Shown: positions 1,379-59,078, counted from the stretch's first letter. The stretch is DNA of 64,000 nt from SAR202 cluster bacterium Io17-Chloro-G4 (GCA_002816455.1 MUCR01000017.1:6702-70701); one strand, 5' to 3'. Numbers and translations are program-made. Notes: generated by a model not told the origin, from the sequence alone.

Positions 1379-1491
1379 CCTTGTTTCTCCACTAATTAGG
1401 TTCGTTTCGAGGACAGCGACTAGATGGAAGGCACGTCGGAGGTGGAGACGGTAGTGGCTTGCCCAGCCTAAGCGCCCTTGATGATGGACGT

Positions 1492-1518
1492 CCTTCGACA
1501 GGCTCAGGATGAACGGGG
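1492..1518. repeat. REP-like repeat family 1, variant (CCTTCGACAGGCTCAGGATGAACGGGG)
   Basis: This is the reverse-orientation variant of the family ('FDRLRMNG' when translated). A further fragment, ATTGTCGAACCATC, lies at 1607-1620. Confidence 0.6.
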
Positions 1519-1681
1519 AAGGGGAGCGCCCACCCTTCGTGGTGTGAGCCCTTCGGACCCACTCAGGACAGGTCCGACATTGTCCAGACTCTAGATGGAT
1601 TCGGAGATTGTCGAACCATCATAGGAAGCTCTTGGGTTTGACTCTCCGAGATTTGTGTGGACCACCCAGTGTATTTATGTC

Positions 1682-2464
1682 TTAAACGTCCTCGGCGAAG
1701 TCTCGCAGGGCGCTGAAATCCGTCTTAAAGCCCTCGGTCATGGCGCGCCGGTCTGTTCCGTGAAGGATGAACCTGGCGCCTTGGCTGATCCAATACTTGG
1801 ATAGCTCAGGCGTTTGATGGTGCACCAGCACCGGTAATCCCCGGTTGGCGGCGGTGTCGATTATGTGCTTGACCGTACTTTTATATTCGGGCCGGTCGTA
1901 TTGGTCCGGGAAGCCCAAGGATATGCTCATATCGTTGGGGCCGACGAAAATCCCGTCTATGCCCGACACCTCAAGCATCTTATCCAAGGCGTTAACAGCG
2001 GCCACGCTCTCGATACCGATAATGGCGATGCTGTTGCGGTTCCGTTCTTCCAAGTAAGCGCGGGTTGCGTCGCTCACATGCTCCCCGGTGTCTATAATTT
2101 TCCGCACGGCTTCCCCTTTTAAGGGACGCCATTTGGCCGCCGCAACCACTTCCTTTACTTCCTCCACGGTCTCGCAGTAGGGCGCCAAAACGCCTTGAGC
2201 GCCAGCGTCCATGGCCATGGTCACGTAGTGGGAGTCGGGGATGGGGATGCGCACTATGGGCACGACTCCGGTCGTATTGCACATGGTCAAGTAGTCGCCC
2301 AACTCGCCCCGGCTGCGGGGGTTGTGCTCCGTGTCGATGATGATGTAGTCCAAACCCACTCCCGTGAGAATTGGTATCCACCTGGGATTACGCCCAATGG
2401 ATATCATGGTGCCGAAGACCCGGCCCCCGGCCTGCAATGTGGATTTTAATTCTGCTCCGTTCAT
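1682..2464 (-). CDS. HpcH/HpaI family aldolase (2-keto-3-deoxy-acid aldolase-like)
   Basis: 260 aa. The segments GLDYIIIDTEHNP, VRIP and IAIIGIESVAAVNALDKML...IDGIFVGPNDMS fit the HpcH/HpaI TIM-barrel aldolase pattern. Confidence 0.8.
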   Translation of the reverse strand: MNGAELKSTLQAGGRVFGTMISIGRNPRWIPILTGVGLDYIIIDTEHNPRSRGELGDYLTMCNTTGVVPIVRIPIPDSHYVTMAMDAGAQGVLAPYCETVEEVKEVVAAAKWRPLKGEAVRKIIDTGEHVSDATRAYLEERNRNSIAIIGIESVAAVNALDKMLEVSGIDGIFVGPNDMSISLGFPDQYDRPEYKSTVKHIIDTAANRGLPVLVHHQTPELSKYWISQGARFILHGTDRRAMTEGFKTDFSALRDFAEDV

Positions 2465-2564
2465 ACCTACGCCTTATTTCTAATTTAATGATGTTTGTAC
2501 AGGTGGTTCAACAAGCTTGTGCTGAGCCGAGTCGGAGGGCTAAACACAAACGGTTCGGCTTCCT

Positions 2565-2592
2565 CCGCTCGTGGTGAGCTTGTCGAACCATC
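2565..2592. repeat. REP-like repeat family 1
   Basis: CCGCTCGTGGTGAGCTTGTCGAACCATC, located in the 3' intergenic region. Confidence 0.8.
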
Positions 2593-2659
2593 GCCTTCAG
2601 TTTATCCAAGGACTCAGCTTTATGTCCTGCGTGATTAAGAAATTGCTTGTAGCGGATCC

Positions 2660-3739
2660 CTAATGAGTCTCCAACAACCTCTCGCAGAAGCGGGCGGTGT
2701 TCATCAAATCGGGTACCACTACATACTCGTTCACCGTGTGCATGCCATTGGTGGCCATGCCTACCACCACACAGTCAATGCCGTTGAGCCTCATGGCATT
2801 TGCGTCGGTGCCTCCCCCCGAGGCCTCAATGTTGGGGACTAGTTTCATCTCGCCCATGACCCGGGTTACCAGCTGAACTATGGGGTCGTTGGGGTCCAAG
2901 TTGTACATGGTGAACATCACGTTCAGTTCTTCCTGGATGGTCGCCTCCCGGTACTTCTCGCGAGCTTCTTCCAAAGTGCTGATTAATTGCATGCGCAGCG
3001 AGTCCACCATCTCGGTATTGCGGCTGCGGAACTCACCGCTGAAAGTAACATCGGAGGGCACGGCATTACGCACCGAGCCGCCGGAAATCGTGCCAACGTT
3101 GAAGGTGGACTCCTCGTCCAGACGCCCTTGAGGAAGGGCGCCGATGATGTCGGAAGCGATGCGGATGGCCGAAAGTCCTTTTTCCGGCTCAACTCCGGCG
3201 TGGGCGGCCCGTCCGGTTACAGTGATGTCAAAACCCACGTAAGTAGGGCTGGAACCGGTGATCTGGTTCACCGGGCCGTTGCCGTCGAATACCACCGATT
3301 CCTTGCACCGAATCATGGAGTAATCAAGATTACTGGCGCCCACCAGGCCGATTTCCTCGCCGCGGGTAAAGACTACCTGCACCGGTCGCCTGTGCCGGCC
3401 TTCCTGTTTCGCCGACTCCAAGGCCTCCATTATGGCAGCCACACCTGCTTTGCAGTCGCCGCCTAAGATTGTCGTGCCGTCGGACTCGATGCGGTCTCCC
3501 ACAACCTGGGGCTTGATGCCCCGCCCTGGGTTCACCGTATCCATGTGGGCGGATAGGAGCAGCGGGTCGTCGCCTTCCTCGGAAGCGATAACGTTCCCGT
3601 GGGCGTCTCGCTCGACTAGAAACCCCAGATTTCCCAACCGTTCTTCCAGGTGTTTGGAAATGTCCTCTTCGAAGTCGGAAGGACTATCGATGCGGACCAT
3701 TTCACAAAATGAGTTAACCAGTCTTTCCTGATCAGGCAT
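2660..3739 (-). CDS. M20-family metallopeptidase (peptidase T-like tripeptidase)
   Basis: Contains SAHMDTV, GGDCKAGVAAIMEAL, TRGEEIGLVGA and HTVNEYV. The start was chosen at ATG 3739, 5 nt after a GGGAG SD; the ORF track begins at GTG 3745. Confidence 0.75.
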   Translation of the reverse strand: MPDQERLVNSFCEMVRIDSPSDFEEDISKHLEERLGNLGFLVERDAHGNVIASEEGDDPLLLSAHMDTVNPGRGIKPQVVGDRIESDGTTILGGDCKAGVAAIMEALESAKQEGRHRRPVQVVFTRGEEIGLVGASNLDYSMIRCKESVVFDGNGPVNQITGSSPTYVGFDITVTGRAAHAGVEPEKGLSAIRIASDIIGALPQGRLDEESTFNVGTISGGSVRNAVPSDVTFSGEFRSRNTEMVDSLRMQLISTLEEAREKYREATIQEELNVMFTMYNLDPNDPIVQLVTRVMGEMKLVPNIEASGGGTDANAMRLNGIDCVVVGMATNGMHTVNEYVVVPDLMNTARFCERLLETH

Positions 3740-7629: not shown

Positions 7630-7784
7630 CTTGATTGGCTCGCTAACAGGCGCAAATCTCCCCCATTGACCCTATTACGGCTACATGTTAGGTTTTGGGG
7701 TGCTGGAAGCGGGTCAATTTATCCATCCAAAACCAGGTTTTCCTATTTCGGTGGCGGTGCAGAGGCCGTTGCCCAGGGGTGGAC

Positions 7785-9431
7785 ATGAGCAACCACAATA
7801 ACCCAGGCCAGGGACCACTGCCATGGGAATCCTCCCTGGGTGATTTCTTTGAGCTTGCGGTTGAGAAATCTCCGGACAAGGAGTTTGTGGAGATCTCAGG
7901 TCAGGAGTTCACCTACCGCCAGGTCCATGAGAAGGCACAGCAAACGGCCTCAATGTTTCTGGGGATCGGCGTCAGCCATGGCGACCGGGTCTGTTTGTTC
8001 ATGCCCAACTGCCCCGAGTACCTTTTCTGCTGGTTCGGATTGTCCATCTTAGGCGCAATCGGCGTTCCCGTTAACACCGCATACAAGCGGGACGAGATGG
8101 CATTTATCCTCAACGACTCGGAAGCCAAGGCCATGGTGGCTCATCAATCTTTGGCAACTGTAGCCCAGGAAGCGGCGATTTTGGCGCCTAGTGTTGAACA
8201 CAAACTGTTGGTCGCAGACGTGGACGGCTCCGCTGTGGATGAACAAAATATCTCCGGGTGGACAGGGTTCAGCCAAGCCCTTGACCAGGCGGCCGTTTTG
8301 GCTTCCCGGCCCGAAGTGGCCCCAGATTCCGTTTGCATGCTGGTTTACACGTCGGGTACTACCGGAAACCCCAAGGGAGTCATGGTTACCCACAAGATGT
8401 ACGTGGCGGCCGGCCAGGGGTTTGCTAGTTGGACAAGAGCCAAGCCTGAGGACCGGTTCTTTACTTGCCTGCCCTTTTACCACGCCAACATCCAGTATTA
8501 TTCCACTATGGGCGCTATGGCGGCGGGCGCAACCTTGGTGATTGCTGATCGTTTCAGCGCCTCCCGCTTTTGGGACCAAGTGCGGGAAGCCAAGGCTACC
8601 GTGGTCAACTTCATCGGCATGATGATGCCCGTTTTAGCCAAGAACGACGAATCGCCTGACGACAACGAGAATACGGTGCGGCTCTTCTATGGTTCTCCCT
8701 CATTTTCTCCCGAGTTCCTGGCCAGCTTCCAAGAAAGGTTCGGCACGGACATTATTGTCGGTTTCGGCATGACTGAGACCTGTTACGGCACCATCGAAGT
8801 CATCGGTCAGGAGCGCCGGTCCGGTTCTTCCGGCTTGGCCCGGCAACATCCCGATCCCAGGTTTGTTAATGAAATTCGCATCTCCGACCAAGAATCCGGT
8901 GAGCCCATCGGCACTGGCATTGTGGGAGAGATTACGATAAAAAACCCGGCGACGATGCCCGGCTACTGGCGCAATGAAGAGCAGACCCAGTTTTCATTGC
9001 GGGACGGTTGGTTATACACCGGAGACTTGGGCTGGTTGGACGATGACGGCTTCTTGTACTTCGTTGACCGGAAGAAGGACATCATCCGCCGCAGAGGCGA
9101 AAACATCTCTTCCCAAGAGGTCGAAGACGTTATCAAGCGCCACCCAAATGTCCTGGATTGCGCCGTCGTCGCGGTGCCATCGGAACTGGGCGAAGACGAA
9201 GTAAAAGCCTACGTTTTGCCCCGCCAAGGCGCCGTTGTCAGTCCCGAGGATGTGGTCCACTGGTGCGCCGACAATTTGGCCTACTTTAAGGTGCCCAGGT
9301 ACCTAGAGATGCGAGAAGACCTGCCCCGCACGCCAAGCCTCCGGGTGCGTAAAGACCTGCTGAGGCAGGAACGTGAAGACCCCACCGAAGGCTGCTTCGA
9401 CAGGGAGGCTGCTGGGATAAAGCTAAGGTGA
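7785..9431 (+). CDS. AMP-dependent acyl-CoA synthetase/ligase (ANL superfamily)
   Basis: Contains YTSGTTGNPKGV (P-loop-like A3 motif), GYWRNEE, YTGDLG and RRGENIS. The start was chosen at ATG 7785 (MSNHNNPG...) rather than the track's 7695. Confidence 0.85.
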   Translation: MSNHNNPGQGPLPWESSLGDFFELAVEKSPDKEFVEISGQEFTYRQVHEKAQQTASMFLGIGVSHGDRVCLFMPNCPEYLFCWFGLSILGAIGVPVNTAYKRDEMAFILNDSEAKAMVAHQSLATVAQEAAILAPSVEHKLLVADVDGSAVDEQNISGWTGFSQALDQAAVLASRPEVAPDSVCMLVYTSGTTGNPKGVMVTHKMYVAAGQGFASWTRAKPEDRFFTCLPFYHANIQYYSTMGAMAAGATLVIADRFSASRFWDQVREAKATVVNFIGMMMPVLAKNDESPDDNENTVRLFYGSPSFSPEFLASFQERFGTDIIVGFGMTETCYGTIEVIGQERRSGSSGLARQHPDPRFVNEIRISDQESGEPIGTGIVGEITIKNPATMPGYWRNEEQTQFSLRDGWLYTGDLGWLDDDGFLYFVDRKKDIIRRRGENISSQEVEDVIKRHPNVLDCAVVAVPSELGEDEVKAYVLPRQGAVVSPEDVVHWCADNLAYFKVPRYLEMREDLPRTPSLRVRKDLLRQEREDPTEGCFDREAAGIKLR

Positions 9432-9574: not shown

Positions 9575-10051
9575 TTGGCGGAAAAAAGGTACTGGTTATT
9601 TAAATCCGAGCCAACCGCTTACTCCTACGCGGACCTTCAGGGCGAAACAGGCGGAATTGCGGAATGGGACGGAGTGAGGAATTATCAGGCCCGTAACCTG
9701 ATTAGGGACGAAATGAAATCCGGCGACGGTGTGCTTTTTTACCACAGCAGCGCCAACCCAATGGCGGTAATTGGCACCGCGCTGATCGTTAAAAATGCCT
9801 ACCCTGACGCCACCGCATGGGACCCAAATGACAAGCACTACGACCCTAAAAGCACGCCCGGCAACACGGTCTGGATGGTGGTGGATATCCAAGCCGACCA
9901 GGAATTCCCCAAGCAGGTGACGTTGCAAGAAATCAAGGACAATCCAAAACTGCAAAACATGATGGTTGCTAGGAGAGGGATGCGTTTGTCGGTCCAGCCG
10001 GTGACCGCCGAGGAGTGGGCCGAGGTCCTTCTTATGGGAGGTCTCAGCTAA
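9575..10051 (+). CDS. EVE (PUA-like) domain protein
   Basis: YWLFKSEP...WDGVRNYQARNLIRDEMKSGDGVLFYHS is the canonical EVE-domain N-terminus. It has a TTG start 6 nt after AAGGAG. Confidence 0.8.
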   Translation: MAEKRYWLFKSEPTAYSYADLQGETGGIAEWDGVRNYQARNLIRDEMKSGDGVLFYHSSANPMAVIGTALIVKNAYPDATAWDPNDKHYDPKSTPGNTVWMVVDIQADQEFPKQVTLQEIKDNPKLQNMMVARRGMRLSVQPVTAEEWAEVLLMGGLS

Positions 10052-10107
10052 AGGGGGCGGTCTTACTTAAAGCAGAGGCGGTCTTGGCCCATCATAGGAG
10101 GCAAACC

Positions 10108-10917
10108 ATGGCGGAGTACAGCTACGAGACTCTTTTAGTCGACAAGAATGATGACATATTGACCATCACCTTGAACCGTCCCGAGCGCTTAAACGCCGTG
10201 GACGAAACCATGCACAAAGAACTAGAGACTGTCTTTGCCGAGGTGGGCAATGACCCCGATGTGAGCGCGGTGGTTTTGACCGGCGCCGGACGGGGGTTTT
10301 GCTCCGGCGGCGACGTGCGGGCCATGGATGAAAGGGGCGGAGCCATCGCCTTGCAGAGCCGGCCCTTGGGCGCTGTTTCCCAAGGAGGGCGCCGGATTAT
10401 ACATAATATGTTATGGGTGGAGCAGCCGATGATCTGCGCCCTAAACGGCGTGGCTGCTGGCCTAGGGGCCACAATCGCTCTGTTTTGCGACGTTATCTAT
10501 GCCTCCGACCAAGCTCGGATTGGCGACACCCATGTGCGGGCTGGCTTGGTGGCCGGTGACGGCGGAGCGGTCATTTGGCCTCTGCTGATCGGGGTGGCCA
10601 AGGCTAAAGAACTGCTCATGACCGGAGACATCATTGATGCCAACGAAGCGGAACGCATCGGTCTGATCAACAAGGTGGTTCCCCATGATGAGTTAATGGA
10701 GACGGTGATGGATCTGGCCCACCGCTTGGCCACGGGCCCGGCTCTGGCGATACGGGGCACCAAACATGCCATGAACAAGAAAATCTGGAACGATTTGAAC
10801 CTGGCCTTGGATATGGGCCTATCCCTGGAAGCCCGTAGCGCCGGTCACCCGGACCACCAAGAAGCGGCCAAGGCTTTCGTGGAGAAGAGAGCTCCCCAAT
10901 ACAAAGGAACGATTTAA
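10108..10917 (+). CDS. Enoyl-CoA hydratase/isomerase (crotonase fold)
   Basis: Contains ITLNRPERLNAV, VVLTGAGRGFCSGGD and C-terminal AFVEKRAP. The start was chosen at ATG 10108 after AGGAGG. Confidence 0.85.
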   Translation: MAEYSYETLLVDKNDDILTITLNRPERLNAVDETMHKELETVFAEVGNDPDVSAVVLTGAGRGFCSGGDVRAMDERGGAIALQSRPLGAVSQGGRRIIHNMLWVEQPMICALNGVAAGLGATIALFCDVIYASDQARIGDTHVRAGLVAGDGGAVIWPLLIGVAKAKELLMTGDIIDANEAERIGLINKVVPHDELMETVMDLAHRLATGPALAIRGTKHAMNKKIWNDLNLALDMGLSLEARSAGHPDHQEAAKAFVEKRAPQYKGTI

Positions 10918-15476: not shown

Positions 15477-16427
15477 ATGGAAACGATTGGATTTATCGGT
15501 CTGGGAAACATGGGCGGAGGCATGGCGAACAACATCCAAAAAGCGGGCTATCCCATGGTTGTTTACGACCTGCGGGAAGAAGCAGCCCGGCCTTTATTGG
15601 ACGGCGGCGCGCGGCTGGCCAACTCCCCGGAAGAAGTTGCCGGCCTTTGCGAGGTAACTTTCACTTCATTGCCAGGCCCCAAAGAAGTCGAGGAAGTGTC
15701 GCTGGGCGCCGAAGGAATCTTGGCGGGTATTAAGTCCGGCGGTATTTTTATCGACCTGTCTACCAGCCGGCCGACATTGATACGAGAGATCGAGCCCCAA
15801 TTCCGGCAAAAAGGCGCCCACGTGTTGGACGCTCCCATCAGTGGGGGCAAGAGCGGCGCAGCCAGCGGAAATTTGGCGGTGATGGTTGGTGGAGAGCGGG
15901 AGATATTCGACCGTGTTAAACCCCTGCTGGATTCATTCGGCGACAAGGTTTTCTACGCCGGGGAAATTGGGGCGGGCAGTGTGGCCAAATTGGTGCACAA
16001 CATGATCGGTCACGGGGTCAGGCAGGCCATCGCCGAGGGAATGACGCTTGGCGTCAAGGCCGGCGTGGAACCCGAGGCCTTGTGGCAATGCGTGCGCCGG
16101 GGAGCGTTAGGCCGAATGAGCGGTCTCCACGAAGGTATGGCCAAGACGGTATTCACGGGCGAGTTCGATCCGCCGAGCTTCGCTTTGGCCCTATCCCGGA
16201 AGGACATCGGCCTGGCCACTGAACTGGGAAAAGAGTTTAACGTCCCGATGCCGGTGGCCAACCTGGCGGAGCAAATCGCCATCCAGGGCATGAACCGGGG
16301 TTGGGGCAACCGGGACAGCAGCGTTACCTTCTTGCTTCAAGAAGAGCAAGCTGGCGTGGAAGTGCGGGTGACCGGCGTTGACGTGGAAAAAGCCGCCCGG
16401 TTTATTTCCACTCATCCAGAGCTATAG
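15477..16427 (+). CDS. NAD(P)-dependent 3-hydroxyisobutyrate/6-phosphogluconate-dehydrogenase-family oxidoreductase
   Basis: It has a GFIGLGNMGGGMA Rossmann motif and the family's C-terminal helical domain. Confidence 0.85.
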   Translation: METIGFIGLGNMGGGMANNIQKAGYPMVVYDLREEAARPLLDGGARLANSPEEVAGLCEVTFTSLPGPKEVEEVSLGAEGILAGIKSGGIFIDLSTSRPTLIREIEPQFRQKGAHVLDAPISGGKSGAASGNLAVMVGGEREIFDRVKPLLDSFGDKVFYAGEIGAGSVAKLVHNMIGHGVRQAIAEGMTLGVKAGVEPEALWQCVRRGALGRMSGLHEGMAKTVFTGEFDPPSFALALSRKDIGLATELGKEFNVPMPVANLAEQIAIQGMNRGWGNRDSSVTFLLQEEQAGVEVRVTGVDVEKAARFISTHPEL

Positions 16428-16453: not shown

Positions 16454-16498
16454 GAAAAAATCCCCCGGCTGCTTTTTAAAGCAGCCGGGGGATTTTTT
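16454..16498. terminator. Bidirectional Rho-independent terminator
   Basis: AAAAAATCCCCCGGCTGC-ttttta-AAGCAGCCGGGGGATTTTTT, a GC-rich stem flanked by an A-run and a T-run. It sits between convergent genes ending at 16427 (+) and 16540 (-). Confidence 0.85.
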
Positions 16499-16539
16499 GG
16501 GTCATAGCTGGAGGGCGGACGGCGACTGGGAATTTTGTG

Positions 16540-18102
16540 TTAGGTTTTGGCCTCGCTGGTGATCACACCGTTGGTGATGACGCCCAATTCCCGCCAAAGC
16601 CCGTGGAGCAGGTCTTCCTCGCTGGGCAATCCGTTGGTATGGCGAGGCACCATGCCTTCCCGGGAGCGCCACATATACGTTAGGTCTTCTCCAATGAGCT
16701 CTATAATGGCGTTGCGCACACCGCTATCGGTGCCGATGTCCGGGTAAAGCTTCCAGCATTCGTTCTTAACCAGCTGTAACCACTCGCCTTCGGAGGTGCA
16801 CGAGGCCCGGTCCTCGGCAAAGTGCCACTGGTACCAAGCGGTAACCATTTCCCGGAAAATCGTCAGGTCCGACGCCGGAGCTCCTACTATGGACATCTGA
16901 ACATCGAACCGGTGATTGTCTCCGGGATGGCCTTCGACGGCGGCGAATCTGCGACCACCGCCTAATCCTCTGACGACTATGTCGTGGACGTTGGAGGCGG
17001 TGATGCCAACTCCGGATGCCGAGTCCACATGGCCCACACCGACTTCACCCACGCGCCACACCTTCTGCTCCATGGCTGCGGTACCACGGTGCATTTCAGC
17101 GAGCAGTTCGCCTAGTTCCTCGTTGTAGCGCATTCCATTGGATATCACGGAGAGGAACCCAGCTTCCAGTGACACCGTGTCCTGTATTTTTTCAGACAGG
17201 GCCAGAGCCAGCAGTTCTTCCATTTCTTCAGTGCTCACCCGATTGTTGCCGTAAACGCCCAGACCTTGCAAGGAGGACCGCACGGTTTCCGCAACCTCGT
17301 TTACATCAGCGGAGCTTATTTGGAACCGATCCAAGATTCGTGCGGCAATGCTCTGAGCCTGCTGTCCCCTCAGTAAGTTCCTTACGGTGGGGTCCTCGCT
17401 CTCGAAGCTCCAAAGGTCGGGGTCAATAACTTGTTGGAACAGCGGTCCTCCCAAGGTGGCCCGCCTTCTTAGACTGGCCGTCACCTCGAACCATGAAGCA
17501 ACGTACTCTTTGATCTCTTCTTCCATGGATTTAATAACATCGGCGACGTGGTTCCGGCACATGGTTTCCAGCCACTCGTCGATTTGTTGCTTCCACTTGG
17601 GAACTCGCCGTCGGCGGTCTTCGGGCCTGGCCAGTTCAGGATGGGTATATTCATTTATGCTGGGCAGGTCCCGTTGAATGGCCCTGGCGGATAGATTCTC
17701 CCACCTGCGAATGGCCGGGTCTTGATGAGGCGCCACTATCAAACCCTGGACGTACAGGTTTTCCAGCCGAGCGCGGATTTCCCGGGTCAGCTCGTCTTTC
17801 TTCTCGTCAGCAAGAAAGCTGGCTCGTACTAGTTCGTTTCTAATTTCTCCGTTGGCCTCCAGGATTATCCGGTCGGCCACCGCTACGTCGGGGCCCAACT
17901 GCTCAAAGACCAGTTTGATGGCTTTTTCCACGTCTTCCAATCCGCCATGCATCACAGCGTGAATCTGCTGAAAGGCGTCTCTGGAGCTGATGTTGCCCGA
18001 TTCGACGGCCAGGAAATCCAGCGGGTCGATGGATTGGCGCACCTTGGTCGATTCCTCTTTGTACGAGAGTTTTTTCTTACTCAGCCATGAAACATTTGGC
18101 AT
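16540..18102 (-). CDS. Hypothetical 520-aa protein, tightly coupled partner of the tubulin/FtsZ-like gene
   Basis: The ATG lies 7 nt after the upstream stop. The N-terminal and middle parts look charged and helical, and the C-terminal part looks beta-rich (GVGHVDSASGVGITASNVHDIVVRGLGGGRRF...). I recognised no family. Confidence 0.6.
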   Translation of the reverse strand: MPNVSWLSKKKLSYKEESTKVRQSIDPLDFLAVESGNISSRDAFQQIHAVMHGGLEDVEKAIKLVFEQLGPDVAVADRIILEANGEIRNELVRASFLADEKKDELTREIRARLENLYVQGLIVAPHQDPAIRRWENLSARAIQRDLPSINEYTHPELARPEDRRRRVPKWKQQIDEWLETMCRNHVADVIKSMEEEIKEYVASWFEVTASLRRRATLGGPLFQQVIDPDLWSFESEDPTVRNLLRGQQAQSIAARILDRFQISSADVNEVAETVRSSLQGLGVYGNNRVSTEEMEELLALALSEKIQDTVSLEAGFLSVISNGMRYNEELGELLAEMHRGTAAMEQKVWRVGEVGVGHVDSASGVGITASNVHDIVVRGLGGGRRFAAVEGHPGDNHRFDVQMSIVGAPASDLTIFREMVTAWYQWHFAEDRASCTSEGEWLQLVKNECWKLYPDIGTDSGVRNAIIELIGEDLTYMWRSREGMVPRHTNGLPSEEDLLHGLWRELGVITNGVITSEAKT

Positions 18103-18109
18103 GATTAAC

Positions 18110-19150
18110 CTACCTGCTACCGACGTTCCATTTGGTCTGCAAATATTGACGGGCGGTCAAATTGAAGAAGCCTTCAAGGAGGCCGACCTCTTTGGAGCTG
18201 ATGGACCCGAAGCGGGCATCAACCCGATTGTTGGCCTCCCTCATGGTCTCGTGATACCTGGCCCACCAGTCTGACCCGCTGCCCCAAGAGTCGGCCACCA
18301 GATTTTCTAAGATGCGGGCAACGTGAGCCCGTTGTGCCGGGATCGAGTCTTTGGGTGAACGATGAAGCAGTCCGATGTCGAAATGGGGACCGGTGGCTTC
18401 AATGAGTTTGTCGGGATAGACCGTAATACGGAAAGTGTCCGACCCGGTATGCTTTCCTTCGCCTGCCGCCACGCCGGTGGCCGACCTCAAAAACTGCATA
18501 GTTGAATAGGTGTTTCTGAGTTGCAGCGGGTAGCTGTTGTCCGGGTCCCTGGAGAGACCTCTCTGGGGCATCAGCAGGTGCAAAACCACGCTAAAGTTGT
18601 ATGCGGTGCCCCGCGCCTCGGACAGAGCCGCAAGCAATACGGGAAGAGCGCCGATGGTGCCGCCGCCCAAGAAGGCGACTACGTGGGCCCTTAGATAAGT
18701 TTTGCCTTCATAGTACGGGCACACTTCGCTGATGATGGAGTCTATATGTCCGCGCATGGCGGCATAGTTGTAACGGGCAGCAACGCCGGCATTGGCCAAC
18801 ATTCCCAAAGCGCCTTCCCTGGAAAGGCTTAGGTGCTTGAGTTCCGGCACACATTCCGTGATCCAGGGTCTCAGGTCACGAAGGTTGGAAAAATGAGGGA
18901 GTGTTAGAGGAATAAACCGCGAGGCCCGGGAGATTTCTTCCCGGGTAGCTTCCCTCGTATCGAGATATAGGAAGCCTAAACTGTTCCTGTCGGAGGAACT
19001 CCAAGACTCAGTGGTGGTTTCTAGATGTTGTGTTATTTGGCAGGCTGTAGTACCCAGGCCTATAACCACCGACGGCGATGCAACGCGCTGCGTCGCCCTC
19101 GTCCCTCCAAGCCGCGAAAGGACGTTTCTCCGGACTGTTGACGATACCAT
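18110..19150 (-). CDS. Divergent tubulin/FtsZ-superfamily (Tubulin_2-like) protein, 346 aa
   Basis: Motifs occur in the order VVIGLGTTACQI, FLYLDT, EGALGMLANAGVA, VVAFLGGGTIGALPVLL (compare FtsZ GGGTGTGAAPV), VVLHLLMPQRG, NTYSTMQFL. A strong SD (AGGAGG) precedes the ATG. Confidence 0.55.
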   Translation of the reverse strand: MVSSTVRRNVLSRLGGTRATQRVASPSVVIGLGTTACQITQHLETTTESWSSSDRNSLGFLYLDTREATREEISRASRFIPLTLPHFSNLRDLRPWITECVPELKHLSLSREGALGMLANAGVAARYNYAAMRGHIDSIISEVCPYYEGKTYLRAHVVAFLGGGTIGALPVLLAALSEARGTAYNFSVVLHLLMPQRGLSRDPDNSYPLQLRNTYSTMQFLRSATGVAAGEGKHTGSDTFRITVYPDKLIEATGPHFDIGLLHRSPKDSIPAQRAHVARILENLVADSWGSGSDWWARYHETMREANNRVDARFGSISSKEVGLLEGFFNLTARQYLQTKWNVGSR

Positions 19151-19220
19151 AGGCCCTCCTGGATATAGCTACACACCTCCCCACTATCTTCACAGATTCC
19201 CCGTGTATTCAGCTAAGTAA

Positions 19221-19248
19221 TTTATATCATCATTCTGTTGTCTGTCAA
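19221..19248 (-). promoter_or_regulatory. Putative sigma70-type promoter of the tubulin-like operon (TTGACA-N16-TATAAA with TG extended -10)
   Basis: The minus strand reads TTGACAgacaacagaatgaTGaTATAAA, about 70 nt upstream of ATG 19150, inside an AT-rich tract. Confidence 0.45.
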
Positions 19249-19603
19249 ATTAGGGCTTCTGAATTCGGTAACATCTTATTGGGCTTGAAGGCGTTTAGGT
19301 ATCCTTCACAGCGAATTCATCCACCCATCCCGTTAAAGGCTAAAATGTTATATTAACGGGCGTAACGTGGTGCTTATACGGCTATGCCACCAATTAGGCT
19401 TATATCTGAAATATGTGCTATTTGATTAACTTAAAAATCGACGGAATTCGTAATCCGTCTAGTGGACATAAAAACGCCCGATATCCCTTTCCTGTTAACC
19501 GGAATCAAGCCATCTCTGGATACCCACCACGAGCCCAAGCGCCGTTAGTGGCCAGGTTGTGGAGTCCACCCTCTCTTTTGTCACGGCGCCGTGCCTCTAA
19601 TGT

Positions 19604-19745: not shown

Positions 19746-21419
19746 TTAGAGAGACCCGTCGATGCTCACGTCGAGTAAGGCGGGTTTTCCGCTGTCGTAA
19801 GCCCGGCGCAACGCCGGTCCCAGTTCTTTGGGGTCCTCTACTCTCTCACCGGCGACTCCCATACCTTGGGCGATGGCGGAAATGTTTAAGGGGTTGTCGA
19901 AGTTCATGCCGACGTAATCGCTTTGGCGTTCCTTATCCTCCAGCATCCGCTGTAGGTAAATGTCCATGTTTACCTTGAGAATACGGTAGGCCCGGTTGTT
20001 GCAGATGGCGTAAACCACGGGGATGTTGTACTTGGCGGCAGTCCACAAAGCCTGCACTGTGTAAAGGGACGCGCCGTCGCCCACCACTGCCAGGACCGGT
20101 CTGTCCGGGTTGGCCAGCTTGATCCCCAAAGCGCCCGGCATGGCCCAGCCCAAAGCGCCGCCCTGAATGCCGTAAAAGCTGCCGGGCTCATCAAAGTTGA
20201 AGGCCCGGTTCAGGGCTGGCCTCGAGGTTATGGCCTCATCAGCTACTATCACGTCGGGAGGTGAGGCCTCGGCCAACTCTTGCATCATCTGCTCCACGGC
20301 CATGGGGCTGCGACCGGTAAGGCCCCGGAGCCGTTCCTGGTACTGCTCGTCAGAGCGGCGGCGCTCGTCGGCGTAAGTTGCGGACCGTGTGGCCGCCGCC
20401 TCTTTGGCAGATGCCGACATGTCTTGTCCCAGGGCGTCGGTCAATTCCGCAGTTCCCGCTGCCGGGTCGGCCAGAATGCCCACTTCGGTGGCGTAGATTT
20501 TTTCGACTTCTTCGTAGTTACTGTCCAGATGTATCAGCTTCGTTGTAGGAGACAGGAACGGGTTTTCGACGTACAAGAATGAATTGAATACGTTGGCGCC
20601 GATGGCTACCACCACGTCGGCCCCGGCCAGTTGCCTGGCGGTCGAGGGGTTGTTCAGGTTCAGGATTCCAGCGTACAAAGGATGGCTGGTTGGAAAGTTG
20701 ACCTCCGTATAGGCCGATGCGTAAACCTTCGACCCAAGTTGCTCGGCCAATCCCACTACTTGGGAAACTGCTCCCGATTGGGCCACCCGGTCTCCCACTA
20801 CGATGACTGGGTTATCGGCTTGGGACAGAAGCATTGAGGCTTGTGCGATCGCATCGGTATCGGGGCGGACTCGGTGGTAGCCGGGTGAAGACGGGACGAT
20901 ATCTACGTCTGACAGATCATCCATGGTGTCCCATGGGAAGGACAAGAACACCGGCCCGGTTGGAGGAGTTTTGGCCTCTTTGAAAGCCCGTCGCACCGCC
21001 ACAGGTATGTCCGACGCATGTAATATCTCGGCGCTCCACTTGGTGTATTGCGAGGTCATCTGGACCAGGTCGCCGGACAATACCGGATCGGCCATGAACA
21101 TGCGGGTATCCGAATTTCCCGCCGTTAATATTAACGGTGTGCCGCCCCTATGGGCGTTGTATAAAGCGCTGATGCCGTTGGCCAAGCCCCCGGCGATATG
21201 TATGTTGGCGAATGCAGGCTTTCCCGTGGCCCGAGCGTAGCCGTCGGCCATGCCCACCGCTGTACCTTCCTGGAGCGCTTGGATGTACTTCAATTGAGGG
21301 AAGTCCTGTAAAACGTCCAAAAAGGGCGTTTCGCTGGTGCCCGGATTCCCGAAAATGTACTCCACACCTTCAGCAGCCAGCATTTGGGCCAAGGCTTGTT
21401 TCCCAGACATTGACGGCAT
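19746..21419 (-). CDS. Thiamine-diphosphate-dependent enzyme (benzoylformate decarboxylase / acetolactate synthase-like)
   Basis: 557 aa, with GVEYIFGNPGTSE at the N-terminus and the ThDP motif GDGASLY...NN. Confidence 0.85.
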   Translation of the reverse strand: MPSMSGKQALAQMLAAEGVEYIFGNPGTSETPFLDVLQDFPQLKYIQALQEGTAVGMADGYARATGKPAFANIHIAGGLANGISALYNAHRGGTPLILTAGNSDTRMFMADPVLSGDLVQMTSQYTKWSAEILHASDIPVAVRRAFKEAKTPPTGPVFLSFPWDTMDDLSDVDIVPSSPGYHRVRPDTDAIAQASMLLSQADNPVIVVGDRVAQSGAVSQVVGLAEQLGSKVYASAYTEVNFPTSHPLYAGILNLNNPSTARQLAGADVVVAIGANVFNSFLYVENPFLSPTTKLIHLDSNYEEVEKIYATEVGILADPAAGTAELTDALGQDMSASAKEAAATRSATYADERRRSDEQYQERLRGLTGRSPMAVEQMMQELAEASPPDVIVADEAITSRPALNRAFNFDEPGSFYGIQGGALGWAMPGALGIKLANPDRPVLAVVGDGASLYTVQALWTAAKYNIPVVYAICNNRAYRILKVNMDIYLQRMLEDKERQSDYVGMNFDNPLNISAIAQGMGVAGERVEDPKELGPALRRAYDSGKPALLDVSIDGSL

Positions 21420-26543: not shown

Positions 26544-27776
26544 ATGGATTTTGAACCCACCTATACCGAGGAGCAGGAAAAATTCCGGCTGGAAGTCCGA
26601 GCCTGGTTGAAGGACCACGTTCCTGCCAGTATCGTCCACCCAGCGGACCCGATCGACCTCTCTTACGAGCAGTATCAGATGCGCCGGGAATTGGGCCGCA
26701 AGCTGGGCGAAAAGGGTTGGCTCTGGCCCACCGCTCCAGTGGAATACGGCGGCGGCGGTCTGTCCTTGGACTATTCGGTGGTTATTGAAGAAGAAATCGA
26801 CAATGCCGGCATGACCCTGCCGCCCTACTACGACTCCGGCGGAAAGCTTGGCGGCGCTTCTATATTGGTCTGGGGCTCGGAAGAGCAAAAGCAGTTTTTC
26901 TTGAACAAGATTTTTCGAGGCGAAGTCCGGACCTGGCAACTGCTGTCTGAACCCGAAGCTGGCTCCGACCTAGCTAATGTTAAGACCACCGCCATCCGGG
27001 ACGGCGACGATTATGTGATTAACGGCCAGAAAGTCTTCGTAGGCAGTGGCCTGGGCTGCGACTACATGTGGACCATAACAGTCACCGACACCGAGGCTAA
27101 GCGGCACGAAAACCTGGGTTGGTTCATGATTGAGGCCGACTTGCCCGGCATAACAATTCAGCCCATGGATTTGCTAATTTCCGGCGGCGAGTCGGGAGCT
27201 GGTTCCGGCGTAAAGAACGTGGTGTTCTTCGACAACGTGAGAGTGCCTGCTTTCAACCTGGTAGGCGGTGAGAACGAAGGGTGGAAAGTCGCCACCACCC
27301 ACTTGGAGCTGGAGCATGGCACCGGCGGACGGATTTCCCGAAACTGGTTGGTTGACCGGATGTTCGATTACTGCAAAACCACCCAGCGCCGGGGCGAACC
27401 GCTGGCCAAAGACCCGAATGTTCAGGACCGTTTGGTGGACATATACATTGAAGCTGAAATTACCCGCCTATTTAACTTGAGAAACTATTGGATGCGCCAC
27501 AGCGGCGCAACCATTACCTATGAAGGCCCTCAAGCGTCTTACTATCGGAAGCAATCTGGGCTGCGTCAGGCGACGGCCATCCTGGACATCCTGGGACCGG
27601 CGGCGCTGACTTACGATCCCGAACTGGGCGCCGGAGAAGGCCACGTGGAAGCCTACATGCGCTCGGCGTTAATAGCCCTCCATCCGGGCGGCACCACCGA
27701 CATCCAGAAAGTTATTATGGCCCGGCGCATCGGCATCGGCCGCGAGGTTAAAGAAAAAGCAGGTGCGTTGGCTTAG
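26544..27776 (+). CDS. Acyl-CoA dehydrogenase family protein (putative catalytic subunit)
   Basis: 410 aa with the ACAD three-domain layout. LELEHG aligns by eye with the isovaleryl-CoA-DH-type catalytic Glu (LDLER). The C-terminus reads GGTTDIQKVIMARRI. Confidence 0.85.
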   Translation: MDFEPTYTEEQEKFRLEVRAWLKDHVPASIVHPADPIDLSYEQYQMRRELGRKLGEKGWLWPTAPVEYGGGGLSLDYSVVIEEEIDNAGMTLPPYYDSGGKLGGASILVWGSEEQKQFFLNKIFRGEVRTWQLLSEPEAGSDLANVKTTAIRDGDDYVINGQKVFVGSGLGCDYMWTITVTDTEAKRHENLGWFMIEADLPGITIQPMDLLISGGESGAGSGVKNVVFFDNVRVPAFNLVGGENEGWKVATTHLELEHGTGGRISRNWLVDRMFDYCKTTQRRGEPLAKDPNVQDRLVDIYIEAEITRLFNLRNYWMRHSGATITYEGPQASYYRKQSGLRQATAILDILGPAALTYDPELGAGEGHVEAYMRSALIALHPGGTTDIQKVIMARRIGIGREVKEKAGALA

Positions 27777-27781
27777 ATTTA

Positions 27782-27848
27782 GCCACCGAGACACAGAGGC
27801 GCGGAGACTACGAGATAAAAACTCTCTGTGACTCCGTGCCTCTGTGGC
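27782..27848. repeat. Repeat family 2 hairpin (between the two ACAD genes)
   Basis: CACAGAGGCGCGGAG ... CTCCGTGCCTCTGTG. Confidence 0.75.
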
Positions 27849-27873
27849 ATACCAGTGCGAAAGAAGGAGCCCT

Positions 27874-29028
27874 ATGGACCTAGCTCTGACTCCGGAACAG
27901 GAAATGCTAAAGACGGCCGTGCGCCGTTTCGTGCAACAAGAGTACCCCAAAGACACGTTGCTGCAGATGGCGGCCACGGGTATATCATGTCCTTCCGAAT
28001 CGTGGAGCAAGCTAGCGGAGACAGGATGGCTGGGAATTGCCATCCCTCAAGAGTACGGTGGGGAGGGAGGCACGCTAACCGATGCCGCAGTACTTTTCGA
28101 GGAACTGGGGAGAGGTCCTGTTCCCGGGCCGCACATCAGTTCCGGGCTTCTAGGAGGCTTCACCGTGCTGGCTGGTGGCACTCAGGCGCAAAAGAGGGAA
28201 TGGCTGCCCTTGATTGCCAAGGGTGAGCGGTCGCTAGTGCTAGCCGTCACCGAGGCCGACTACGGATGGGATGCCAGGGACGTGCGCTTGGTGGCCACCC
28301 ACGACGGCGACGGTTATCGGCTAAACGGCTCCAAAAGCTACGTTTTCGACGGCTTGTCAGCCACCCATTTCCTCTGTGCCGTGCGCTTGGATGACCCCCC
28401 CAACCCCCCCTTGGCAAGGGGGGGCAAGGGGGGGTCCGTGGGATTGGTGTCGGTCCCGGCCAACGCCTCCGGAGTCACGGTTCGATCCCTGCCTGGCTTT
28501 GCTTGGAACCTGTCCGAGGTCAAGCTGGATGACGTGGTAGTTGATAAAGCCGACCTGCTGGGCGAGTCCTTCGACTCCGGGTGGGACGCTTTCCAAGAAG
28601 CCGCCGGCCGCACCATTCCCGTTCTCACCGCTTATCAAGTTGGCGCCTGCCAAGCGGTCTACGACATGTCGGTGGAATACAGCCGGACGAGGGTACAGTT
28701 CAACATGCCCATCGGCCGCTTCCAGCGGGTGCAAGACCATGTCATAAACCTTGTTAACCAGTTGGACGCCGCCCGATGGACGGCCTACGAAGCGCTATGG
28801 AAGTTGGATACTGACCGCCCGGCTGCCGACGCAATCCACTTGGCAAAGGCCGTTGGCTCTGAAGCCTATTATCAGGCTTGCAACCACGCCCACGAAGTCC
28901 ATGCCGGTGTGGGCAGCATGACCGAATATGGCCTTACCCTGCACACCACAGCCTCCCGCACCCTCTACCACTACCTGGGTGACCCCCGCTACCACCGCCG
29001 CCTGCTGGCCGAGGCTCTGGGTTTGTAA
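27874..29028 (+). CDS. Acyl-CoA dehydrogenase family protein (second subunit-like paralog)
   Basis: ATG 27874 follows AAGGAG. The protein has an ACAD fold (MDLALTPEQEMLKTAVRRF...). Both usual catalytic-Glu positions appear substituted, and it carries an in-frame repeat insertion at 28394-28434. Confidence 0.85.
   Translation: MDLALTPEQEMLKTAVRRFVQQEYPKDTLLQMAATGISCPSESWSKLAETGWLGIAIPQEYGGEGGTLTDAAVLFEELGRGPVPGPHISSGLLGGFTVLAGGTQAQKREWLPLIAKGERSLVLAVTEADYGWDARDVRLVATHDGDGYRLNGSKSYVFDGLSATHFLCAVRLDDPPNPPLARGGKGGSVGLVSVPANASGVTVRSLPGFAWNLSEVKLDDVVVDKADLLGESFDSGWDAFQEAAGRTIPVLTAYQVGACQAVYDMSVEYSRTRVQFNMPIGRFQRVQDHVINLVNQLDAARWTAYEALWKLDTDRPAADAIHLAKAVGSEAYYQACNHAHEVHAGVGSMTEYGLTLHTTASRTLYHYLGDPRYHRRLLAEALGL
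28394..28434. repeat. Repeat family 5: nested G/C palindrome C7-AA-C7-TTGGCAA-G7-CAA-G7, inside a CDS
   Basis: ACCCCCCCAACCCCCCCTTGGCAAGGGGGGGCAAGGGGGGG, translated in-frame as DPPNPPLARGGKGG. It is related to the element at 59079. Confidence 0.8.
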
Positions 29029-33696: not shown

Positions 33697-34995
33697 CTAA
33701 ATGATTCTCGACCCTGTCGGCTTATCGCCAATCACCCCTGTCTCTTCAAGTTCCATGATCTCTGGCTCAGTGAGGCCCAACAACTGTCCGTAAATCTGGC
33801 GGTTGTGCTGGCCTAAAGCCGGGGACGCCCACCTAATTTGGCCTGGCGTGACCGACATCTTCCAAGGAATCCCCGGATATTTGCGCACACCCACGTGGGG
33901 ATGGTCCACCGCCACAAAAGTATCCCGGTCCTTGTAATGCGCGTCCTCCAGCAGGTCCGGCCCCCGCAGCACCGGGCTGGATGGCACCCCGACCTCTTGG
34001 AGCCGTTCGGCCAGTTTGAATGCGTCTTGGGATTCGGTCCAGCGGGAGATTATCTCGTCCAAATCATCTTGGTTCCCCAGCCTGCCCTCGTTGGTGTCGA
34101 ACCGCGGGTCACTGGCTAAATTAGTGGCCAAATTAGTGGCCAATCCAGACCCGGCGACCAAACCAGCCAGCGCCCGCCACTGTTGGTCGTTGGTTACGGC
34201 GATGGTGATCCACCGGTCCTCTCCCAGGCAGGGATAGGCGTTGTGGGGAGCCACCCGGGGGGAATGATTGCCATTCCGCTCCGGCTCTTGTCCGCTGATT
34301 TGAAAGGCCAGAACCTCCGCCCCGATCAAAGACACAGCGGATTCTTGCTGGGAAACATCGATAAACATGCCCTTGCCGGTGCGGCGGCGGTGTCTGAGAG
34401 CGGCCAGGACCACGCCAGCAGCATGCGAGCCGGTGATGGGGTCGCCGTGATTGATTCCCGACTTCATTGGCCCGTCGCCAGCGTACCCGGTCATGTGGGC
34501 CATCCCGGAGAGTTGCTCCTGACCGATGCCGTAGGCCAGGTAGCTTTGCCACGGCCCGTCGTTGCCAAAGGCTGGCATCGAGACGTAAATTAGGTCCGGG
34601 CGGGATTTCTTCAAGGCATCATAGTCGTAACCCAGCCGAGCCAAACTCCCCTGGCGGAAGTTCTCTATCAAGACATCGCTGACTGACACCAACTTTTCGA
34701 ATACAGCCTGGCCTTCCTGAGATGTAAGCTCCAAAGTCACGCCGTACTTGCTGAAGTGCAAGCAATTAAACCAACCGTTCCGGTTCCAAGGTTCTTCTCC
34801 GGGCTCGCCATCAGGATAAGCGGCTATGCCCCGAGCGGGCGCTATCGGGCCCCGGTGGGAGTCATAAACGCTCAGGGACTCCATTTTGATGACCTCGGCC
34901 CCCAAGTCGGCCAGCAGCTTGGTGCAGTAGGGGCCGGCCCAAATGCGGGACAGGTCGAGAATCCGGTAATTTTCCAGGGGTTGTTTTATATTCAT
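33697..34995 (-). CDS. Family III CoA-transferase (CaiB/BaiF-type), catalytic Asp present
   Basis: Contains RILDLSRIWAGPYCTKLLADLGAEVIK. HGDPITG (Asp185) aligns with CaiB YTADYFSG (Asp169). Confidence 0.85.
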   Translation of the reverse strand: MNIKQPLENYRILDLSRIWAGPYCTKLLADLGAEVIKMESLSVYDSHRGPIAPARGIAAYPDGEPGEEPWNRNGWFNCLHFSKYGVTLELTSQEGQAVFEKLVSVSDVLIENFRQGSLARLGYDYDALKKSRPDLIYVSMPAFGNDGPWQSYLAYGIGQEQLSGMAHMTGYAGDGPMKSGINHGDPITGSHAAGVVLAALRHRRRTGKGMFIDVSQQESAVSLIGAEVLAFQISGQEPERNGNHSPRVAPHNAYPCLGEDRWITIAVTNDQQWRALAGLVAGSGLATNLATNLASDPRFDTNEGRLGNQDDLDEIISRWTESQDAFKLAERLQEVGVPSSPVLRGPDLLEDAHYKDRDTFVAVDHPHVGVRKYPGIPWKMSVTPGQIRWASPALGQHNRQIYGQLLGLTEPEIMELEETGVIGDKPTGSRII

Positions 34996-35061
34996 GCCAG
35001 AGAAATTTTTAAGAACACCGTCATTGTCACGCTATTTCTTGTCCATCTCGACTGCGAAATT

Positions 35062-35138
35062 GTCATTCTGAAATGTAGGTGAAGAATCTCATGGGCGTGG
35101 GCCTCAAGTCGCTAGATCCTTCGCTACACTCAGGTATA
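35062..35138. repeat. Repeat family 3, degenerate copy
   Basis: GTCATTCTGAAATGTAGGTGAAGAATCTC ... second arm eroded. Confidence 0.5.
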
Positions 35139-35183
35139 CATAACCTGGTAGGCAAGTTGGGATTTAAGCCTGGTCGCATTCGC

Positions 35184-58914: not shown

Positions 58915-59078
58915 CCGCTGGGCTCCTTTCAGCAATTTGTTCGGCGCAAAGAGTCTCAGGATTTATGGTTGGATACTGCTCAACCCAGGCAAGTAAATAC
59001 CCGCCGCCGGCTCAACAGCAGCACGAGTATACCACTAGTGTGGAAGCCCGAATATTGCGATCTTCAGGGTAATGAAGT

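Follow-up and report, generated by a model that had tools for sequence, protein, structure and literature searches.

A conserved gene pair of SAR202 bacteria as a candidate split form of the Tubulin_2/FtsZl1 family

Described relatives and the SAR202 gene pair

The FtsZ-like 1 (FtsZl1) proteins, which are represented in Pfam by Tubulin_2 (PF13809), form the most divergent branch of the tubulin-FtsZ superfamily. The family was predicted computationally by Makarova and Koonin in 2010 (PMC2875224), and an earlier proposal has its members act in membrane-associated complexes. An FtsZl1 protein is one chain of about 1000 amino acids (aa), in which a domain resembling FtsZ, located at the N-terminus, is followed by an extended coiled coil and an alpha-helical C-terminal domain. 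The present analysis concerns two adjacent genes, designated A (upstream) and B (downstream), on the minus strand of a stretch of 64,000 nucleotides (nt) from SAR202 cluster bacterium Io17-Chloro-G4 (MUCR01000017.1:6702-70701); this whole stretch is referred to as the window, and positions are counted from its start. Rather than a novel type of system, the pair represents a split and strongly diverged form, confined to one lineage, of this computationally known family. It is fairly probable that its products are the two halves of a protein of the Tubulin_2/FtsZl1 branch, which would function as a nucleotide-dependent accessory cytoskeletal or membrane-organising unit. The two genes are:

Gene A, 18110-19150, minus strand: 346 aa, divergent tubulin/FtsZ-fold protein of the Pfam Tubulin_2 / FtsZl1 type (open reading frame, profile, model and ratio of nonsynonymous to synonymous substitution rates, dN/dS)
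Gene B, 16540-18102, minus strand: 520 aa, no known family, matching the C-terminal two-thirds of single-chain relatives (open reading frame)

A first-pass annotation, made from the sequence alone, had given the positions and lengths of both open reading frames (ORFs), the gap of 7 nt between the TAG of A and the ATG of B (18103-18109) and the different reading frame of B, all of which agree with the ORF calls and the sequence. Its description of the pair as a candidate novel system did not hold in full, as the family was described in 2010 and one ortholog is already named "tubulin-like domain-containing protein" at NCBI.

The N-terminal domain of A is colinear with positions 1 to about 270 of the FtsZl1 profile, and A and B taken together keep the order of parts of the single chain, with a tubulin/FtsZ fold and glycine-rich T4 loop followed by long helices or coiled coil and a further C-terminal domain. 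Like FtsZl1, the pair co-exists with canonical FtsZ and has relatives encoded among membrane proteins. It differs in being divided into two genes (346 + 520 aa, compared with one chain of about 1000 aa), in a T4 loop (GGGTxGA) that is one residue shorter than GGGTG(S/T)G, and in a glycine-poor T1 loop. FtsZl1 operons often contain genes for vWA proteins, a divergent P-loop GTPase, Ser/Thr kinases and OmpA, whereas none of these occurs near A-B. The A-B clade is so isolated that a profile search missed the canonical members, and it is limited to Dehalococcoidia/SAR202 and a few unassigned metagenomic contigs.

Three further groups of tubulin-fold proteins were compared. The archaeal CetZ proteins (4b45, 4b46, 3zid) are the best structural matches of the A model, and like A they are accessory proteins of the tubulin superfamily that occur beside FtsZ in surface-layer (S-layer) cells without peptidoglycan. 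However, they have no detectable sequence similarity to A, reach a template modelling (TM) score of only about 0.42, and are single chains whose FtsZ-type C-terminal domain and T7 loop are complete and which lack a B-like partner. TubZ and PhuZ are divergent bacterial tubulin-fold proteins as well, and are found among the top Foldseek matches of A (3v3t, 2xkb, 9pm9), but they are encoded by plasmids or phages and have TubR/centromere or phage-nucleus functions. In contrast, A-B is chromosomal, with no gene for a DNA-binding adaptor: a tblastn search with A against 72,556 plasmids retrieved chance matches only, no relatives of A-B were found on viral contigs or among the phage protein families (PHROGs), and the position of the pair in chromosomal core synteny also places it outside TubZ/PhuZ. 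In BtubA/BtubB of Prosthecobacter, two adjacent co-transcribed genes form a tubulin-type unit, too. There, both products are complete tubulins that form a heterodimer, whereas in A-B only A has the tubulin fold and B corresponds to a detached non-tubulin extension.

The two proteins and their fused counterparts

PF13809 is the only Pfam family matched by A (E = 1.5e-5, 24.8 bits; residues 28-233 on profile positions 1-234 of 356); PF00091 and PF12327 gave no match at E <= 10, and searches of NCBIfam, PADLOC and PHROGs were negative for A. All 37 aligned A orthologs matched PF13809 (best E = 3.1e-12), several of them exceeding the curated cut-off of 27 bits (31-40 bits; for example P0019 with 40.4, P0056 with 35.7, P0031 with 35.2 and P0007 with 34.4 bits) and aligning colinearly with profile positions 1-271 of 356. 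The AlphaFold2 (AF2) model of A had a predicted TM score (pTM) of 0.70 and a core with a per-residue confidence (pLDDT) of 76-91, residues 1-20, 227-236 and 289-346 being poorly predicted. When this model was compared with the PDB by Foldseek, the first 35 matches all belonged to the tubulin superfamily (CetZ2, TubZ, FtsZ, CetZ, PhuZ and tubulins), and the best of them was CetZ2 (4b45; E = 2.4e-5, TM about 0.42, about 300 columns). Both results bear out the tubulin/FtsZ fold of Tubulin_2 type that had been read from a series of peptides, each of which is present in the A translation (VVIGLGTTACQI at residues 28-39, FLYLDT at 60-65, EGALGMLANAGVA at 112-124 and VVAFLGGGTIGALPVLL at 157-173, as well as VVLHLLMPQRG, NTYSTMQFL, FDIGLLH and RFGSIS). 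The conserved segments of A are as follows:

Residues 31-38 (GLGTTACQ), 19037-19060, minus strand: putative counterpart of the phosphate-binding T1 loop, with G33, T35 and C37 almost invariant
Residues 160-168 (FLGGGTIGA), 18647-18673, minus strand: T4 signature loop; F160, G162-G164, T165 and G167 invariant, fused relatives included
Residues 210-215 (QLRNTY), 18506-18523, minus strand: in the long helix 203-225 (H7 equivalent); R212, N213 and Y215 invariant
Residues 289-346, 18113-18286, minus strand: conserved C-terminal segment with F314, G315, S316, E321, F328, F329 and W341

The assignment of residues 31-38 to the T1 loop is suggested by their location after strand 1 of the AF2 model; the segment is glycine-poor but conserved (GLG[ST]T[AS]C). 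The T4 loop reads GGGT(I/V/S)GA and is thus one residue shorter than the signature GGGTG(S/T)G, a form that is invariant in the clade. Alignment of A to E. coli FtsZ by hhalign covered the T4 loop only, placing HVVAFLGGGT-IGALPVL on MVFIAAGMGGGTGTGAAPVV (FtsZ T4: MGGGTGTGA) with a one-residue gap (E = 0.038, weak alone), which confirms the T4 assignment made earlier, one residue being deleted. Residues invariant in split and fused forms alike are D64, G113, F160-x-GGGT-x-G167, R212-N213-x-Y215 and the C-terminal set. The description of A as motif-degenerate was overstated, as GGGTxG of T4 and RNxY are invariant clade-wide. Since these T4 and H7 motifs are kept throughout the clade, nucleotide binding by A is probably retained, and QLRNTY may contact the base. 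The C-terminal segment 289-346 has a pLDDT below 50 in the monomer model despite its invariant residues, and its equivalent in the fused relatives runs directly into the linker toward the B part. It is proposed as a docking segment for B.

B could not be assigned to any recognised family, as had been stated before. It had no match in Pfam, NCBIfam, PADLOC and PHROGs, a profile search of PDB chains gave chance matches only, and Foldseek comparison of its model with the PDB and BFVD yielded nothing significant (generic long-helix proteins, E > 0.03). Its conserved parts are:

Residues 26-310, 17173-18027, minus strand: DPLDFL motif ahead of a helical domain that contains two very long helices, 77-123 and 160-215
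Residues 340-470, 16693-17085, minus strand: most conserved block of B
Residues 490-507 (NGLPSEEDLLHGLWRELG), 16582-16635, minus strand: conserved short amphipathic C-terminal peptide after a variable, low-confidence linker

Residues 10-310 of B were confidently modelled as helical (pLDDT mostly 83-97), and the DPL(D/S/G)F(L/I) motif is kept in the relatives P0226, P0230 and P0231. The block 340-470 has the invariant pattern MEQKxWRxGE..GHVDSxxGVG..GLGGGRxFAxVEGHP..HRFxVQMSxVGA..DLxxFxxMVxAWYxWHF..WKLYPDxG. Residues 311-419 have a pLDDT below 50 although they overlap this block. The block might be a novel fold by which the tubulin domain is completed or regulated in trans. The terminal peptide has the consensus NGxxxDxDLLxGLxxELG, also given as NGLPxxxxLLxGLWRELG, with G491 and L498 nearly invariant, and could be a partner- or membrane-binding tail; a similar tail (…LALELLSELGF…) is present in the fused protein P0230. 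The layout of linker and terminal peptide presumably resembles that of FtsZ. The peptide HRFDVQMSIVGAPASDLTIFREMV of B may recall element S8-H9 in the C-terminal domain of FtsZ; when B was aligned with E. coli FtsZ by hhalign, nothing meaningful was obtained.

The relation between the two proteins is indicated by fused forms. An exhaustive hidden Markov model (HMM) search of 1.84 billion representative proteins with the B profile found 41 relatives, two of which carry an A-like domain: P0230 (850 aa, B-like part 354-846) and P0226 (969 aa, B-like part 362-817). Their N-termini are 39% identical to full-length A (E = 3e-77 and 5e-79), and B is 27% identical to residues 356-811 of P0230 (E = 4e-36). 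The junction from A to B corresponds to a linker of about 30 residues between W341, the last conserved residue of A, and DPLDFL, the first conserved motif of B. B lies directly 3' of A in 81 of 81 loci. Of the 83 loci at which both parts were found, 79 have them as two genes and two (L007, L082) as a fusion, and in two long-read loci they are broken. In a neighbour-joining tree of the A part, fused and split forms are located on opposite sides of one branch (96.5% bootstrap support), so that one event explains the distribution. The tree is unrooted, and fission is the more economical direction, consistent with the fissioned origin suggested in the first-pass annotation. Of the two outcomes that this annotation had named as contradicting it, a lack of profile or structural similarity of A to the tubulin/FtsZ fold and homologs that are never adjacent or fused, neither was observed. 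An origin of the two ORFs as a pseudogene or by a simple nonsense split (the latter already dismissed in that annotation) was rejected, because more than 70 species retain the stop and the frame change, purifying selection acts on both genes and B begins with a start codon of its own.

The strength of this selection was estimated by comparison with the closest genome, UBA1141 (A 95% identical). The dN/dS was 0.017 for A, 0.048 for B and 0.04-0.06 for neighbouring enzymes, ratios that are rough because dS is near saturation, with dN still far below dS. In a collection of 5.8 billion proteins, about 100 protein clusters of A and 140 of B were counted, nearly all 345-348 aa and 512-525 aa long, respectively, and stemming nearly all from metagenome-assembled genomes (MAGs) of Chloroflexota, Dehalococcoidia or SAR202. 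A and B are real genes under strong purifying selection.

The most divergent relatives of A and B are the fused forms at L007 (3046-9813) and L082 (643-9102) and the split form at L008 (5-7891). These loci share an operon of U, A/B, C and D, to which E is added in L008 and L082:

U, 300-430 aa: C-terminal transmembrane helix, plus an N-terminal one in two complete copies
C (membrane protein), 700-755 aa: two central transmembrane helices
D (membrane protein), 233-246 aa: four transmembrane helices
E (membrane protein), 384-408 aa: three transmembrane helices; L008 and L082 only

Between the loci, the pairwise identities of U, C, D and E amount to 21-27%, and none of these proteins has a Pfam or PHROG match. 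Such an operon is in keeping with the earlier suggestion of FtsZl1 proteins working in membrane-associated complexes. The pair had been called self-contained, which is true of the SAR202 lineage but not of these distant relatives, where it is part of an operon of 4-5 genes with membrane proteins. Protein C was also considered as a degenerate A/B paralog and rejected as unsupported (hhalign probability 0.3%); its N-terminal motifs LAVFVVGxL and DHCFVVSxWD fall into a non-significant hhalign register with the first strand and the T4 strand of A. A scan of Joint Genome Institute (JGI) metagenome contigs with the C alignment retrieved no relative. At the end of the L082 operon, a gene with a faint JAB domain is located nearby.

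Proposed role and alternative explanations

SAR202 genomes carry canonical ftsZ and ftsA (PMC11994032, PMC10608941), and genome surveys found ftsW and ftsI lacking and an apparently S-layer-type wall (PMC11994032, PMC10608941). Genes for septal peptidoglycan synthesis were reported to be absent (PMC11994032). The separate ftsZ and ftsA identify A-B as an additional element of the tubulin superfamily and not a divisome protein; A is further set apart from FtsZ proper by its lack of matches to PF00091 and PF12327 and because sequence searches reached no solved FtsZ. For A:B, an accessory cytoskeletal or membrane-organising role, for example in cell shape or membrane remodelling but not in cytokinesis itself, is most likely by analogy, given the separate FtsZ and FtsA, the missing septal peptidoglycan genes and the S-layer-type wall.

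Under the reading favoured here, the gene would have been split, on the line of descent to SAR202, at the linker that joins the nucleotide-binding domain to the remainder. A would bind guanine nucleotide, and its C-terminal segment would dock on B and thereby restore the single-chain arrangement. The A:B complex might then self-assemble in a nucleotide-dependent manner, with the long helices and C-terminal peptide of B serving as spacers and as anchors to the membrane or partners. A more specific version, in which A:B is an obligate two-subunit cytoskeletal element restricted to SAR202 and its relatives, with the nucleotide engine (A) parted from the assembly and anchoring module (B), is advanced only tentatively. 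If it were true, the separate polypeptides could allow stoichiometry or assembly to be regulated, and the element would shape cells or organise internal or envelope membranes in a bacterial group that ranks among the most abundant of the dark ocean. A-B is in any case a conserved core pair of SAR202, which are abundant in the sea and have an unusual envelope, and a role in shape or membrane organisation would inform their cell biology. The pair also offers practical access to the FtsZl1 branch: for a 346-aa protein apart from its long extension, expression, nucleotide-binding assays and structure determination should be easier than for chains of 1000 aa, and naturally split and fused versions are a built-in test of how the parts interact.

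Several observations weigh against the proposed reading. The window copy of A scores about 2 bits under the PF13809 cut-off, a search of PDB chains with the A profile gave chance matches only and reached no solved FtsZ or tubulin by sequence, and a broadened A profile search at E <= 10, which was aimed at canonical Tubulin_2 proteins in order to set B against their C-terminal regions, returned only the A clade. The Foldseek TM-scores of A are modest (about 0.4). No conserved T7 catalytic motif can be named in the alignment of the A clade, the stretch that follows H7 varies and has become shorter in the fused forms, and polymerisation of A is suggested by analogy. Neither A nor B has a predicted transmembrane helix, and tblastn searches with U, C, D and E found nothing at E <= 0.01 in the 64-kb window or the other fetched A-B loci (SAR202 loci of 13-17 kb each; the three distant loci that supplied the queries were excluded from the targets). 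In the literature searched, no experimental work on any FtsZl1/Tubulin_2 member was found more than 15 years after the prediction. Furthermore, the pair is not indispensable everywhere. At L031, on a Dehalococcoidia MAG chromosome (OY761986.2; 7041-10256), B is split by a transposase ORF of 427 aa on the opposite strand (7767-9050) and has an extra frame break near its C-terminal block, while A (86% identical) is intact. This locus may be a natural knock-out of B, or reflect a subpopulation or an assembly effect.

Some of these points would also agree with the best surviving alternative, that A is a non-polymerising tubulin-fold switch (a regulatory GTPase or pseudo-GTPase) and B a helical scaffold or effector. 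The unrecognisable T7 loop, the variable post-H7 region, which is partly deleted in fused relatives, the T1 loop (GLGTTAC) without most glycines, and the C-terminal parts left unresolved in the AF2 models of both A and B are all in line with such a switch, and the same possibility was raised for FtsZl1 by Makarova and Koonin (PMC2875224). If A is indeed non-polymerising, the pair is an example of the tubulin fold reused as a switch. This explanation is nevertheless rather unlikely: the fold match spans about 300 columns of CetZ/FtsZ, among them part of the C-terminal domain, proteins that assemble or serve as anchors typically have long coiled-coil-like helices and a conserved terminal peptide, and no signalling-type output domain was found in Pfam or NCBIfam searches.

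The genomic context bears on a possible metabolic function. A-B is flanked by genes for a glyoxalase-fold protein, a thiamine pyrophosphate (TPP)-dependent enzyme, a nicotinamide adenine dinucleotide (NAD)-binding dehydrogenase and a luciferase-like monooxygenase, the remaining genes of the window being catabolic and housekeeping genes; unrelated metabolic neighbours had been noted from the start. A scan with one genome per species (185,579 species) found 73 loci, all in Dehalococcoidia, Chloroflexota or SAR202 MAGs; otherwise, the distribution comprises a few unassigned metagenomic contigs. In most of these 73 species-level genomes, the order glyoxalase-(TPP enzyme)-A-B-convergent NAD-binding dehydrogenase is conserved, down to about 70% A identity. 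The signals around the pair are:

Sigma-70-type promoter of A-B, 19221-19248, minus strand: -35 box TTGACA at 19248-19243, spacer of 16 nt, -10 box TATAAA at 19226-19221
Shine-Dalgarno (SD) sequence AGGAGG, 19155-19160, minus strand: 4 nt 5' of the A ATG
Bidirectional intrinsic terminator, 16455-16498: stem of 20 bp between an A-run and a U-run

A consensus scan found three promoter-like sites where 3.5 were expected by chance, the -35 box being in the scan list. Among nine diverged upstream regions of orthologs (44% mean column identity), seven retain the -35 box together with a -10-like box, the SD core GGAG is invariant in all nine and AGGAGG is present in eight. A-B is thus an independent transcription unit, as these elements are maintained among diverged orthologs, and the own promoter and strong SD that had been read from the window sequence stood up to the comparison. 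The terminator was also confirmed, and its hairpin has a folding energy of -38.3 kcal/mol (z = -7.45; none of 200 shuffled sequences as stable) and is common to A-B and the convergent dehydrogenase gene (15477-16427, plus strand).

The conserved order could mean that A-B serves the adjoining catabolic genes (glyoxalase-fold protein and TPP enzyme), for instance by holding together or organising a metabolic complex as a scaffold. Yet about 18 loci retain A-B but have no TPP gene between A and the glyoxalase gene, and the conserved promoter of the pair lies 200-600 nt from the upstream gene. At L011, L063 and L074 the pair stays together in other chromosomal contexts (two of these are second copies in the same genome), and these loci, as well as the distant L007, L008, L082 and L083, lack the neighbours in question. 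Synteny of this depth is also common for core genes within one order, and a metabolic tie is accordingly very doubtful. Finally, a conflict, defence or mobile-element module consisting of an NTPase sensor and an effector, an option also listed in the first-pass annotation, can be regarded as highly improbable, for although some NTPase-plus-coiled-coil pairs act in defence, the L063 copy has a large serine recombinase on one side and a DDE transposase on the other and a faint JAB-domain gene is found near the L082 operon end, neither A nor B matched any PADLOC-DB 2.0 family (0 at E <= 10) or PHROG, plasmid records and viral contigs yielded no relatives, no nuclease, protease, pore or other effector domain was found in Pfam, the core-genome position among metabolic and housekeeping genes is fixed, and the pair shows very strong purifying selection with a narrow, vertical-looking distribution in one bacterial class.

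Further observations on the loci and the window

L063 (CBDCQN010000003.1) contains a second A-B copy, the first (L067) being located on the same contig. The neighbours of the second copy are the large serine recombinase (1455-3395) and, on the other side, a DDE_3 transposase (9580-10389); evidently, A and B can be copied or relocated together. In two long-read MAGs (L078, 6228-6992; L081, 6488-7024), the A ortholog is truncated or frame-broken, which indicates either a sequencing frameshift or a pseudogene. In short predicted proteins from contigs of 1.4-2.2 kb, a near-identical A fragment is joined to phage-integrase domains (P0100) or to a phosphotriesterase domain (P0101); the probable cause is a chimeric contig or a miscalled ORF, although an insertion into A could also be behind them. 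One partial A ortholog (P0084, 86% identical) carries the NCBI label Candidatus Dadabacteria, whereas all other matches are from Chloroflexota, and its contig looks mis-binned.

Scans for tRNA genes and Rfam families found nothing in the 64-kb window. A hairpin resembling a terminator at 19440-19459 (minus strand), about 290 nt 3' of the TPP-enzyme gene and about 190 nt 5' of the A-B promoter, fits separate transcription units, yet such matches arise at chance frequency in that region. The window also encodes a luciferase-like monooxygenase and amidohydrolases, and contains several paralog pairs, namely two TPP-dependent enzymes (19746-21419 and 57268-58935), two family-III coenzyme A (CoA)-transferases and two acyl-CoA dehydrogenases (further coordinates listed with these pairs: 33697-36473; 26544-29028).

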